Source: Elusimicrobiota bacterium
GTDB lineage: Bacteria > Elusimicrobiota > Elusimicrobia > Elusimicrobiales > UBA9959
Reading direction: 5' to 3'
NCBI GenBank assembly: GCA_027340875.1
Contig: DAIENX010000012.1
Coordinates: 1 to 13,038, forward strand
Length of the DNA stretch: 13,038 bases
Below, piece after piece: positions 3,037 to 11,305 of this stretch (its first letter is position 1; each line of letters opens with the position of its first letter). Under the pieces are notes generated by a model, which saw only the letters and a program-made list of their open reading frames with translations, searched no databases and was not told where the DNA came from. Made by a program: the position numbers and the translations under genes.

Positions 3037-3066
3037 TTGCGCGCGTTCCGTAATGTTAATTATACT
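3037..3066. promoter_or_regulatory. Putative divergent sigma70 promoter region with overlapping -10 boxes
   Basis: Plus strand TTGCGC(3037-3042)-N18-TATACT(3061-3066); minus strand TATAAT (ATTATA at 3059-3064). AT-rich patch between divergent genes. Confidence 0.45.
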
Positions 3067-3129
3067 AAAAAGCAAAGTTCACCTTATTCCGCCACGGCGG
3101 GCGAGCCGGAGGCGCGGAGGCGTTCACAA

Positions 3130-4725
3130 ATGCGCAAAGATACGGCCAGGATAACCGGTTCCCATATCATAGGCTGCTCGTTCTCCCGGGGAAGCGGGGG
3201 AAAGACCTTCCGCGGCGTAGATCCCGCCACCGGGAACGGTCTCCCCGGGACTTTCCGCGAGGCGGGCCAGGCCGAGGCCGACCGCGCCCTCAGGGCGGCG
3301 CAGCGGGCCTTCGTCGAGCTGCAGGACATGCCCGTCGGAAAGATAGCCGGGATGCTGAAGCGGGTCGCGGCCGGCCTGGAAACCTGCGCCGGGGCCATAA
3401 TAGAGCGGGCGCACCTCGAGACCGGCCTTCCTTACGAGAGGCTCAGGTCGGAGCTGTCCCGAACCGCCGGGCAGGCCCGCGTCTTCGCAGAGCTCATCCT
3501 CGAAGGCTCCTGGGTGCAGGCCAGGATAGACAGCGCCATCCCGGGCAGGAAGCCGCTGCCGAAGCCCGACCTGCGGACGATGATGATGCCGATAGGCCCC
3601 ATAGCCGTCTTCGGCGCCAGCAACTTTCCGCTCGCCATCTCCGTGGCCGGCACCGATACCGTGGCGGCCTTCGCGGCGCGCTGCCCGGTGATAGTGAAAG
3701 GCCACCCGGCCCATCCCGGCACCTGCGAGCTGGTAGGCCGGGTGATAGCGGAGGCGGTGCGCCGCTCCGGCCTGCCGCCCGGGATGTTCTCGCTGCTGCA
3801 GGCCTCCGGTTTCGAGGCCGGGCTGGCCCTGGTGAGACATCCGCTCACCGCCGCTGTCGCCTTCACCGGTTCCCTGGTCGGCGGCAGGGCCCTGGCCGAC
3901 GCGGCCGCCGCCCGCCCCGTTCCCATACCCGTTTACGCCGAGATGGGCAGCGTGAACCCGGTGTTCCTGCTGCCGGGCGCCCTGAATTCGCGCCCCGAGG
4001 AGATAGCCGAGGGCCTGGCCCGCTCGCTCAATACCGGAGTGGGACAATACTGCACCAACCCGGGCATGGTAATAGCCGCAGACTGTCCCGGCTACGCCCG
4101 TTTCCTCGCCGCGCTCTGCGCCAGGGCCAGGGCCGTGCCGGCCGCCCCGATGCTGCACGCCGGCATACAGGCTGCCTATGACCGCGGCACGGCCAGGCTG
4201 GCCGCCATACCGAACGTGCGCCTGGCGGCCGCGGCCCCGGAAGGGGAGGCGGGCCCTAAGAAGGCCGTCTGCAGGATCTTTACCGCCGATGTCTCGCTGA
4301 TAGACCGCAGGCCGGAGCTCGGCGAGGAGGTATTCGGCCCGGCCACCGTGGTCTACCGCTGCAGGAGCGAAGCGGCCATGCTCAAGGCCGCGGACGGCAT
4401 GAGGGGGAGCCTTACGGCCACCGTCCACGCCATCCCCGGGGAACTGCGGCGCTGCGCCCCGCTGCTGCGGGCCCTGCGCCGCAAGGCCGGCCGCATTGTC
4501 TGCAACGGCTATCCCACCGGGCTGGAGCCCTGCCCCAGCCTGCACCACGGCGGCCCTTACCCCGCCACCACGCACAGCTTCTTCACCAGCGTCGGGACTG
4601 CCGCCATCTACAGGTATGTCCGGCCCGTCTGTTTCCAGGGATTCGAAGCCCCCGGCCTGCCTGAAGAGCTCCAGGAAGCCAACCCGAGGGGGATAAGGCG
4701 CCTGGTGGACGGCGTCCTCCGGTAG
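3130..4725 (+). CDS. Aldehyde dehydrogenase, alpha-ketoglutaric semialdehyde (2,5-dioxovalerate) dehydrogenase-like family, 531 aa
   Basis: VFGASNFPLA, KGHPAHP, FTGS..GG, catalytic EMGSVNP and GQYCTNPG, EEVFGP, HGGPYPATT. ATG 3130 is preceded by GGAGG and is preferred over the track start at 3037. Confidence 0.9.
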   Translation: MRKDTARITGSHIIGCSFSRGSGGKTFRGVDPATGNGLPGTFREAGQAEADRALRAAQRAFVELQDMPVGKIAGMLKRVAAGLETCAGAIIERAHLETGLPYERLRSELSRTAGQARVFAELILEGSWVQARIDSAIPGRKPLPKPDLRTMMMPIGPIAVFGASNFPLAISVAGTDTVAAFAARCPVIVKGHPAHPGTCELVGRVIAEAVRRSGLPPGMFSLLQASGFEAGLALVRHPLTAAVAFTGSLVGGRALADAAAARPVPIPVYAEMGSVNPVFLLPGALNSRPEEIAEGLARSLNTGVGQYCTNPGMVIAADCPGYARFLAALCARARAVPAAPMLHAGIQAAYDRGTARLAAIPNVRLAAAAPEGEAGPKKAVCRIFTADVSLIDRRPELGEEVFGPATVVYRCRSEAAMLKAADGMRGSLTATVHAIPGELRRCAPLLRALRRKAGRIVCNGYPTGLEPCPSLHHGGPYPATTHSFFTSVGTAAIYRYVRPVCFQGFEAPGLPEELQEANPRGIRRLVDGVLR

Positions 4726-8684: not shown

Positions 8685-9836
8685 ATGTATAAATACCTCT
8701 CCTCCTTCTCCGCGCTGATGGCCACCGTCCTCGTTTGCGCCTTGACGGCCTCAGCCCAGGACCTCACGGTCAGGGATACCCCGCAGGATTCCGCAGGATT
8801 CACCGCCTACCAGAAAGAATGGGCCAAGAAGTACCCGGACTATTTCATCATCAGCACCGGCTCCGTCCGCGTGACGCTGCAGGAAGTGAAGGAAGAACCG
8901 GACATGAGTTATGTCCGGTTGCAGGAAGAGCCCCCCAAGGACCTGAACAGCGTTCTGGTCAGCGTTGAGAAAATAGTCAATATAGCCTCAAAGCTCTGGG
9001 AGATAGTAAAGGACGGCAAGCCGGTGGCCAACATAGACACCAAGTACGCCACCGCCTACCCGGACGGCGTGACCTCCGCCACCCAGCTGGCCCAGTGGAC
9101 CAAGCCCAAGACCTACGTCTACGGCTTCTACGCGGCGAATCTCTACGGCTCCACGATGATAGACTGCAAGTACAAGGTCTCCTATACCTATAGCGGCTCC
9201 TATAAGGGCGTGGGCAAGTTCCTGACCGGCGTGGCCGTGATCCCCACCTCTATCACCGTGGGCTGGGGTTACCGCTTCGACATGTCGGCCCAGGTGCCGG
9301 ATTCGACCATAGCCAACGTGGGCACCGACAAGTCCCCGGTGGCGGCCATGCAGCTCAAACTGACCTGGAAGATGTCCACCGTTCTGAAGGAAGTCACCGG
9401 CACCAGCGTCTATTACGTGCAGGGCGACGGCTACTACGAGGAGATAGCCAGCCCGTGGAAGAAGGACCAGAAAGAGCCGGAAAACGTTAAAGCGGCCGCG
9501 CCGCTAATCACATTTTTTAACCAGCAGAAAGGAACTGTTGGAGACGTTTTTGCTCGGAATTCTGGTTTGGGAAATGAAACCTGCGCTATTTCAGACTCCA
9601 GGCCAATTGTTCCGATTCCGACTCCAATTCCAGTCCCTCTGCCTCCTGTCCCGCATCCGGCAGTTCCTCCGGCTGAGAAGCCTTGTTCCCCATGTCCGGA
9701 GCCTCCTCCCTCCGAGATTCACACGGATCATCAGCATGGGAACTGCAAAAATGGACATGAGCACTACTTTGAATACCATCAGGAACCTGCTCCGGGATGC
9801 AAATGCCGGTTGGTAAAAAAGACAAAATGTTTATGA
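8685..9836 (+). CDS. Secreted protein A (383 aa): signal peptide, beta-rich domain of unknown family, then a low-GC-encoded Pro-rich linker and Cys/His-rich C-terminal tip; candidate polymorphic toxin
   Basis: RBS AAGGAG; Sec-type signal ending in ASA. Residues up to about 279 are paralogous to 10269-11102; residues 280-383 are encoded by AT-richer DNA. The CDS is well supported, the toxin function is inference. Confidence 0.8.
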   Translation: MYKYLSSFSALMATVLVCALTASAQDLTVRDTPQDSAGFTAYQKEWAKKYPDYFIISTGSVRVTLQEVKEEPDMSYVRLQEEPPKDLNSVLVSVEKIVNIASKLWEIVKDGKPVANIDTKYATAYPDGVTSATQLAQWTKPKTYVYGFYAANLYGSTMIDCKYKVSYTYSGSYKGVGKFLTGVAVIPTSITVGWGYRFDMSAQVPDSTIANVGTDKSPVAAMQLKLTWKMSTVLKEVTGTSVYYVQGDGYYEEIASPWKKDQKEPENVKAAAPLITFFNQQKGTVGDVFARNSGLGNETCAISDSRPIVPIPTPIPVPLPPVPHPAVPPAEKPCSPCPEPPPSEIHTDHQHGNCKNGHEHYFEYHQEPAPGCKCRLVKKTKCL

Positions 9837-10252
9837 AAAAGCTGAAAACCTCAAAAGGTATATTCGAGCTTTTAAGGAAGTTAAATTTCTTCCATGATGC
9901 GTTCATCAAATCGGTAAAGATAGAATCAGCAGACTCTTTCTCGCGGTTAAAAGGTGAAATGGTGAAAGAAGTCACAGGATCCATGAGTTTGCTCCTGCAC
10001 ATAAAACATTATAATTATGCGCAAAAAACCGCATTGGCGGTTTCGGATATTCTATTGCACTTCAATAACGTAAAAATTTTAAAGTTTCAGGCAGGCACAT
10101 TGGAATATCCCTCCGGGTTTGATATTGTCAGCGCCAAAATTGAACCTATTGGAAGTATGCTTAAGATGGTTTTTGAGGGGAACTCGCGCGGAACTGCTAA
10201 AAAAAACTGCGATCTGCTGGAGATCGTATTTTCCGATTTGCGGTTACTTAAC
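9517..10252. other. Low-GC acquired cassette bounded by TTAAC direct repeats
   Basis: Hand counts: 9841-9900 is 21/60 GC versus 41/60 for 9061-9120. TTAAC at 9517-9521 and 10248-10252. Confidence 0.65.
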
Positions 10253-10255
10253 TAA
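9833..10255 (+). CDS. Small cytoplasmic hypothetical protein (140 aa), candidate immunity protein
   Basis: ATG 9833 overlaps the TGA of gene A (ATGA coupling); low GC; no signal peptide or TM segment; LNFFHDAFIKSVKI motif near the N-terminus. Confidence 0.7.
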   Translation: MKKLKTSKGIFELLRKLNFFHDAFIKSVKIESADSFSRLKGEMVKEVTGSMSLLLHIKHYNYAQKTALAVSDILLHFNNVKILKFQAGTLEYPSGFDIVSAKIEPIGSMLKMVFEGNSRGTAKKNCDLLEIVFSDLRLLN

Positions 10256-10268
10256 GGAGGAAGCGAAA

Positions 10269-11102
10269 ATGAAGAAACTGCTAGCACTTGCCGCAGCCGC
10301 CACCGCGGTGTTCGCGGGCCGGGTCTCCGCAGCGGAGAACCTGGACATGAAGTACTTCACCATTGACCAGGACTCCGTGATGATAGAGGAGATCTCGGAC
10401 AAGGGCGGCACCATACCGCCCCCGGACCAGCTGCCCAAGCCGCCCTCGGGCCCGCAGATCAACCCGCCGAAGCCCGGCGACGGCCCCCAGCAGCCGACCG
10501 GTCCTGACATCAACGGCACTATCGACACGCTGGACAAGATCGTGAACCTGATGGAGAAGATCTTCGGCATCATCGAGAAGAACCAGCCGGTCGTCAACAT
10601 CACCACGAACTACGCCAACGCCGTGCCTTTCGGGACCAGCCACTGGACCCAGTTGCAGGGCTGGAGCAAGCCGGCCACCAAGAAGTACGCGTTCTCGATG
10701 AAGAACGCTTATGGTTCCCAGGTCGTAAAGGTCACCTACCAGGTGCACTACACCTATAACGGCAACTTCCAGGGCAAGGGCAAGTTCCTGACCGGCGTCA
10801 CTATCGAGCCGCTCAGCGTCACCACCGCCTGGGGCTACAAGGTGTCCCTGGTCTCCGAGGTTCCGGATTCCACGATAGCCAACGTGGGCACGCACGAGGA
10901 CCCCATCGCCTCCATGCAGGTTCAGCTCCGCTGGACCGTGCACACGATGGTCAAGGATATCACGCAGAAGGGTATCTATTACGTGCAGGGCGACGGCCTC
11001 CTCCAGGAGATCGGCACCCCGTTCAAGAACGCGGAGAACGCCAGGACCCAGAAGAAGATAGACGCGGCTACGCTCGACATAGCCACCTCGACCTTCAACT
11101 AA
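10269..11102 (+). CDS. Secreted protein B (277 aa), paralog of the N-terminal region of protein A
   Basis: RBS AAGGAGG at 10254-10260; signal MKKLLALAAAATAVFAGRVSA; Pro-rich spacer. Shares KIVN, TQL..W.KP, N.YGS, GKFLTGV, WGY, VPDSTIANVGT and YYVQGDG with A. Host-like codon usage. Confidence 0.88.
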   Translation: MKKLLALAAAATAVFAGRVSAAENLDMKYFTIDQDSVMIEEISDKGGTIPPPDQLPKPPSGPQINPPKPGDGPQQPTGPDINGTIDTLDKIVNLMEKIFGIIEKNQPVVNITTNYANAVPFGTSHWTQLQGWSKPATKKYAFSMKNAYGSQVVKVTYQVHYTYNGNFQGKGKFLTGVTIEPLSVTTAWGYKVSLVSEVPDSTIANVGTHEDPIASMQVQLRWTVHTMVKDITQKGIYYVQGDGLLQEIGTPFKNAENARTQKKIDAATLDIATSTFN

Positions 11103-11135: not shown

Positions 11136-11177
11136 ACCCCGGCGCCCTGAGAATGGGCGTCGGGGTTTCGTCTTATT
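11136..11177 (+). terminator. Probable intrinsic terminator after gene B
   Basis: 12-bp stem ACCCCGGCGCCC / GGGCGTCGGGGT (one G-U) with a 7-nt loop, followed by TTCGTCTTATT. A further hairpin TCCGCGC-cca-GCGCGGA lies at 11107-11123. Confidence 0.65.
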
Positions 11178-11179
11178 AC

Positions 11180-11305
11180 GGTTGTCCCGGCCGGCGGAAC
11201 ACAAAACACGCTCGGGAACACCGTTCCCTCGCTCGGCATTCGGGTTCGGCGCTGCGCAAGCCTCGCCCTCACGACGGTTTTGCTTATCCGCCGCCCGGTC
11301 CAACC
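11180..11305. repeat. 126-bp structured intergenic element with imperfect terminal inverted repeats (REP/MITE-like or ncRNA)
   Basis: Left arm GGTTG-tc-CCGG-c-CGGCGGA-aca-CAAAAC pairs with right arm GTTTTG-ctta-TCCGCCG-c-CCGG-tc-CAACC; internal hairpin GGGAAC-acc-GTTCCC. Confidence 0.55.

Follow-up and report, generated by a model that had tools for sequence, protein, structure and literature searches.

Polymorphic toxins and the replacement of their cassettes are already known: in the Sec/T2SS-exported systems, a single recombination event replaces the 3' end of the toxin gene and brings in the cognate immunity gene (Zhang et al. 2012, PMC3482391). In the same paper the immunity family Imm50 (PF15594) accompanies the toxin domains Tox-HHH and Ntox24. 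Other lineages have systems of their own, such as TANFOR, secreted polymorphic toxins found in Bacteroidetes (PMC7073777), and the ABP polymorphic toxins of gram-positives, which need a co-secreted protease (PMC13460014). The origin of polymorphic-toxin carriers is usually inferred after the fact.

We analysed a 13,038-nt stretch of an Elusimicrobiota genome, order Elusimicrobiales (the window), in which a gene for a probably secreted protein, A, carries a low-GC C-terminal tip and is followed by a small gene, I, and a paralog of A, B (Table 1). Like the Sec/T2SS-exported polymorphic toxins, the locus combines a predicted signal peptide, a C-terminal tip, a predicted toxin-then-immunity order and a replaced 3' end (PMC3482391). 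In the systems of that paper the incoming cassette displaces an earlier tip while the body of the toxin gene stays constant, whereas here it was added to a normally tip-less family; and, unlike in those systems, no array of orphan cassettes lies 3' of I, which is directly followed by B and a terminator-like hairpin. With TANFOR (PMC7073777) and ABP (PMC13460014), the Elusimicrobia systems described below share a lineage-restricted N-terminal part, variable tips and an adjacent immunity gene, but phyla and carriers differ, and no ABP-like co-secreted protease (PMC13460014) was seen beside A/B or among the inspected ORFs next to the carrier family that we call carrier X. A search of literature listings, with subscription papers and supplements outside its scope, returned no paper that describes A/B, carrier X or the tip of the window; the supplements of PMC3482391 may list this tip or carrier under an unnamed group. 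For such systems in Elusimicrobia the search returned two mentions of the phylum in PMC3482391 and nothing further. The comparisons of sequences reported here lead to recurrent cassette grafting and to an apparently undescribed polymorphic carrier in Elusimicrobia.

Table 1 Features of the window and of related loci in other contigs and genomes
Feature	Location	Strand	Remark
Gene A, secreted A/B-family protein with grafted C-terminal tip, 383 aa	8685..9836	+	export predicted
Sec signal peptide of A (predicted), about residues 1-24, ending TASA	8685..8756	+	read from sequence
Conserved A/B core, modelled as an amphipathic helix followed by a beta-sandwich	8940..9464	+	no Pfam, NCBIfam or PDB sequence match
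Low-GC insert, 747 nt	9506..10252	+	replaces about 41 nt kept in the nearest relative, G050
Foreign Pro-rich linker, residues 275-328	9506..9668	+
Cys/His-rich tip domain, about 55 aa	9669..9833	+	predicted toxin; mobile module that also ends RHS proteins and other carriers
Gene I, 140 aa, no signal peptide	9833..10255	+	predicted immunity protein, cognate partner of the tip
TAAGGAGG, in which the stop of I and the host ribosome-binding site of B overlap	10253..10260	+	right junction
Gene B, 277 aa, ordinary tip-less paralog	10269..11102	+	also 3' of A in relatives
Terminator-like hairpin closing the A-I-B unit	11136..11166	+	consensus match only
Second graft: Pro-rich linker, Cys-rich tip and coupled small gene, low GC	L141:690-1431 (G000:C2)
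Tail and Rce1/CAAX-protease cassettes	L033:2274-4625 (G015); L098:733-2766 (G004); L101:1742-3546 (G024); L140:689-2295 (G071)
Carrier X loci	L054 (G012:C55), L056-L058, L062-L064, L067, L071-L096

A 747-nt replacement at the end of a gene for a predicted secreted protein

The ends of the insert were mapped against the nearest relative, G050, in which A and B are adjacent in the same gene order, the flanks are 90% and 85% identical, and the insert is absent. Identity stopped at 9505, within codon 274 of A, and restarted at 10253, so the residues of A from 275 to 383 are foreign. The replaced nucleotides comprised the last codons of A, its stop and the spacer up to the ribosome-binding site of B. 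Base composition changed along the unit, with GC and GC3 of 0.585 and 0.83 in the core of A, 0.49 and 0.40 in the tip, 0.39 and 0.46 in I, and 0.61 and 0.89 in B (genome GC, 0.636). The fusion is in frame, the ORFs of A and I are both intact, and the start of I overlaps the stop of A (ATGA); A lacks the conserved terminal Phe of its family. A and B are 47% identical across 175 aa, the second copy of the conserved core lying in B at 10506-11030. Here and elsewhere, signal peptides were called from visual inspection and a crude rule based on hydrophobicity.

Contigs from three runs of one study, which may be the assembly's own source, bridged both junctions at flat depth, with no listed variant within the insert; misassembly, at least as a simple join error, was thereby ruled out. 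A sequence-only reading of this DNA had described the three-gene layout with its ATGA overlap and low-GC extension, and had named a misassembly as one way in which it could fail. Layout and coordinates proved correct and the observation stands; the foreign part of A is likewise real and low in GC, but begins slightly earlier than that reading had placed it.

The searches for a mechanism returned no target-site duplication at the ends of the insert, no junction motif common to this graft and a second one on contig C2 (described below), and no donor sequence or recombination signal for the grafts. A possible origin of the last codons of I from host spacer gave a null result, with equally high scores in 83 of 230 control windows.

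The tip, its partner and carrier X

A phmmer search with the tip gave 23 matches, two of which were proline-repeat noise and were excluded. The remaining 21 share the C-terminal module, and at least six of them carry it on RHS-like cores, which were read from sequence (two with Pfam RHS/YD matches). Cys, HxH, Tyr, Gln and Pro are invariant in the module, and the motif is intact in the window. The same tip family ends RHS proteins, among them one of 1023 aa whose downstream gene differs from I, while A itself shows no RHS/YD repeats or core in Pfam or NCBIfam; two patterns for RHS cores matched nothing in this genome. With RHS proteins, carrier X and several other N-termini in front of it, the module is shown by these alignments to move between unrelated carriers. 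It was, like I, without a match above cut-off in Pfam, NCBIfam and PDB sequence searches. The predicted structure has three strands (pLDDT 84.6); Foldseek and Atlas returned no match to it and the best VIA hit reached Z 3.1, a lack of fold matches that shows neither that the fold is new nor that it differs.

Within the phylum, the tip profile matched 3 of 401 genomes (this one, G012 and G062). Homologs of I (E ≤ 1e-5) were found in the same three, directly downstream of the tip, and a fourth, weak match (E 0.007) had no matching ORF. This adjacent co-occurrence indicates that tip and I are a cognate pair. By language-model features I lies nearest to Imm50 clusters (0.93, 210 of 256 shared), and it resembles Imm50 in size and position as well. 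Unlike Imm50 systems, neither I nor its two homologs has a Pfam HMM match, to Imm50 or any other family, and the tip is not the Tox-HHH or Ntox24 of Pfam. Compared with its homologs, I is short by 13-14 aa. A complex prediction for tip and I scored 0.02 against a mark of 0.32, from an alignment for I of only three rows. I looks like an immunity protein of Imm50 type, as a prediction.

From its position and pairing the tip is a predicted toxin. The invariant HxH, Tyr, Gln and Cys, together with a cytoplasmic Imm50-like partner, suggest that it is a small nuclease that depends on metal and has its target in the cytoplasm, an assignment that we put forward tentatively, at somewhat short of even confidence. 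The sequence-only reading had taken the extension for a module in a toxin slot and the coupled small gene for its partner, and both points gained support, toxin and immunity function being predicted.

A different protein, carrier X (e.g. MBI4802861.1), bears the tip in G012, in G062 and in one contig from a metagenome; it consists of a signal peptide, FDxG and GY..GP motifs and a coiled-coil. Carrier X occurs in 8 of 80 genomes of the taxonomic family (one by a weak, unrelated match) and in 25 of 301 genomes of the class, and it was not found in this genome, which is 92% complete. Its body gave generic coiled-coil Pfam matches only, below cut-off. The tips of 38 loci fell into 16 blastp groups, or 14 when one frameshifted copy (of the window's tip) and one doubtful coiled-coil match were left out. 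At 30 of the 38 loci an ORF starts between -23 and +15 from the stop of the carrier, two or three of these ORFs resembling housekeeping fragments. Partner groups tracked tip groups: nine of the 12 tips of the Ntox16 group were accompanied by one partner group, and in a second tip group four of five had HEAT proteins. The commonest pair is Ntox16 (PF15523) with DUF6714 (PF20461), both over the Pfam cut-offs, Ntox16 in five of the six group members scanned; this pair is absent from the window. Most of the other tips had no Pfam match. The HEAT-paired tip carries a QAQGGG motif, and several of the other tips are small and Cys-rich. In G062 (L042:239-1407), the tip-bearing copy of carrier X is broken by two frameshifts, with the partner gene intact.

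Varied tips, partners that track them and a recognised Ntox16 domain indicate that carrier X is, on comparative grounds, a family of polymorphic toxins, and the loci of G012 and G062 mean that the tip of the window alternates with a recognised toxin domain. A polymorphic carrier of the kind sought by the sequence-only reading does exist in this lineage, with about 14 tip types, but the protein family is carrier X and not A/B. About a dozen tip types without a Pfam match, each a candidate toxin, together with candidate immunity genes, would make carrier X a place to look for toxin domains that are new and antibacterial.

The A/B family and grafts on other secreted genes

The A/B core gave no match above cut-off in Pfam, NCBIfam or PDB sequence searches, in line with the initial impression of a carrier without RHS/YD or another recognisable domain. 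Among 153 homologs of A, all 119 listed are 217-302 aa long and stop where the foreign part of A starts, 115 of them with an aromatic residue within the last four positions. A search restricted to proteins of 530-2000 aa with the A/B core returned one. Of 80 genomes in the taxonomic family 77 have such proteins, as do 47 of 301 across the phylum, mostly as tandem pairs, of which this genome has three. Such pairs are near-universal in the family, with up to three per genome, and usually end in Phe. At 29 of 29 loci in relatives, A stops at the family end and is followed by a short spacer and then B, with a terminus AAAPLL...F and 32-66 nt to the start of B (28 loci scored by script).

Among 149 complete copies with the A/B core, from 79 loci, 146 had no tail-plus-partner, although selection of the last 40 loci had in part favoured long open frames, a bias towards tails. 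The other three carry a tail of more than 60 aa together with an unrelated, coupled gene whose GC3 is lower: A of the window, an extra B-like copy in G015, and B in G024. Their cassettes are mutually unrelated. The G015 copy has a tail of 252 aa followed by an Rce1/CAAX protease, and a second genome has this fusion at 70% identity. In G024 the tail is 62 aa, again followed by an Rce1/CAAX protease, and is missing in six sister genomes. Both tails also turned up elsewhere. The G015 tail and protease recur in G004 on an unrelated secreted protein, beside a tip-less duplicate of it, and the G024 tail weakly matches (E 0.004) an unrelated secreted protein in G071, whose partner, read from sequence, is also of Rce1/CAAX type. 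CAAX-type proteases can confer bacteriocin immunity. Possibly, these two tail types are bacteriocin-like peptides, with the protease providing immunity or processing.

We also screened 1803 host-like ORFs of this genome for a low-GC3 tail with a coupled low-GC3 ORF. The scan returned A, one spurious frame and one gene on contig C2, a PAD_porph deiminase whose orthologs end normally in five of five relatives (four with a clear signal-like N-terminus). Identity of the C2 gene to G050, at 94%, stops at position 689 and restarts at 1432. The tip and partner in between are homologous to a carrier X pair in G396 (E 9e-7 and 1e-14). The reading frame of the tip is lost at a stretch of nine G, identically in four of four runs, and a related allele free of the insert co-occurs in two runs. 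Since both inserts are lacking in G050, two cassettes were gained on two secreted genes after the split from that relative.

A constant body with varied tips, the pattern of a dedicated carrier, was thus found in only three scattered copies of A/B. Our verdict is that A/B is an occasional acceptor of cassettes rather than a dedicated carrier. The sequence-only reading had proposed a new delivery system, and this was not supported, given the tip-less state of nearly all copies and the occurrence of the tails' cassettes on unrelated secreted proteins. It had also looked for varied tails with different downstream genes on A/B; three such copies exist, but they make up 2% of those examined and their cassettes are not specific to A/B. 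Nor was the proposed role of B as a structural or delivery partner supported, B being the usual neighbour of A in conserved pairs. A special partner arising together with the tip was ruled out in the same way, as B adjoins A in tip-less relatives. A/B may still be a preferred acceptor: 3 of 149 copies (2%) are tailed, against 1 of 420 signal-like genes with a graft in this genome, a count that consists of A itself and missed the start of the C2 gene.

Origin of the fusion

A foreign cassette replaced the end of A and so fused a predicted toxin tip to a normally tip-less, probably secreted protein, and it placed the likely immunity gene of the tip within the A-B operon. We consider it probable that A/B is an opportunistic acceptor of such cassettes. 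The cassette would have come from a pool of tip-plus-immunity modules that are swapped on carrier X and RHS proteins, and would have entered by illegitimate recombination in the variable C-terminal tail of A. The signal peptide of A would then export the tip, and I, expressed from the transcript that encodes A, would counter it within the cytoplasm. A/B would be one of several secreted genes that accept cassettes opportunistically. Grafts may often be dead, given the frameshifts in the C2 graft and in the G062 copy and the shortened I. The locus is the record of a fresh graft and points the way to an apparently undescribed family of carriers. This one genome has two recent grafts with mapped ends that can be dated by comparison with a relative of 90-94% identity, which makes the step from an ordinary secreted protein to a toxin carrier directly testable.

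A bolder version, which we regard as rather unlikely, is a carrier-promiscuous arsenal in which a shared cassette pool, kept up on carrier X, is repeatedly grafted onto dispensable C-terminal tails of ordinary secreted proteins and makes working toxins; at its boldest, A/B would be a bicomponent pore-former delivering a Cys/His nuclease tip. If this were true, the window would hold a new polymorphic toxin caught at birth.

It is improbable, in our judgement, that the insert arrived by accident and is neutral or decaying, with an orphan cassette in a tolerant gene end, an inert fusion and at most a useful immunity gene. Such an accident would account for its presence in a single lineage, its un-ameliorated GC3, the frameshifts in parallel grafts, the short I and the loss of the terminal Phe from A, and by arithmetic sense orientation and frame would arise by chance about 1 time in 6. 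Against it, all the grafts (window, C2, G015, G024, G004 and G071) are in sense at the 3' ends of signal-like genes, which are 420 of the 1803 host-like ORFs here, and the motif residues of the tip are intact.

Quite improbable, too, is that A/B is a true but rarely loaded two-component delivery pair, perhaps kin to beta-pore-formers, with swapped C-terminal cargo. Three independent and different tails with coupled low-GC genes, the persistence of the G015 fusion in a second genome and the intact, in-frame fusion of the window are what such a system would produce, and as tandem secreted paralogs A and B recall the gamma-hemolysin/leukocidin bicomponent beta-pore-formers. The core model (pLDDT 82) weakly resembled gamma-hemolysin (Z 6.0, rmsd 4.1, 116 aligned), NetF and CytK (Z 4.7) and LukAB (Z 4.6), five members of the hemolysin family being in the top 13. 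All of these lie below Z 8, in the range of common arrangements, the best match was a hypothetical protein (Z 6.2), and Foldseek found nothing. Unlike its counterparts, to which it matched at Z 4.2-6.0 and 11% identity, the core is about 100 aa shorter; the resemblance is a weak lead for an entry route, not evidence of one. The near-absence of tips also speaks against such a pair, even with later loci partly picked for long frames, as do tails that extend A in one case, B in another and an additional copy in a third and all occur on unrelated carriers, and a cassette grafted on a deiminase in the same genome.

That the tip is a small disulfide- or metal-bound binding module, with I as a chaperone or unrelated passenger, would fit the missing toxin-family and fold matches but is very improbable for a module that takes the toxin position behind RHS cores, shares one carrier in alternation with Ntox16 and has an Imm50-like partner.

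Two further features of the window were recorded. Upstream, at 3037-4725, an aldehyde dehydrogenase-like ORF of mixed codon style is flanked by a divergent NADH-dependent hydrogenase-like operon and a pyruvate:ferredoxin oxidoreductase, all names being read from translations. Downstream of B, at 11195-11290, lies a repeated palindromic element, likely a REP-like repeat, where read depth is several-fold higher and loose contig ends are numerous.
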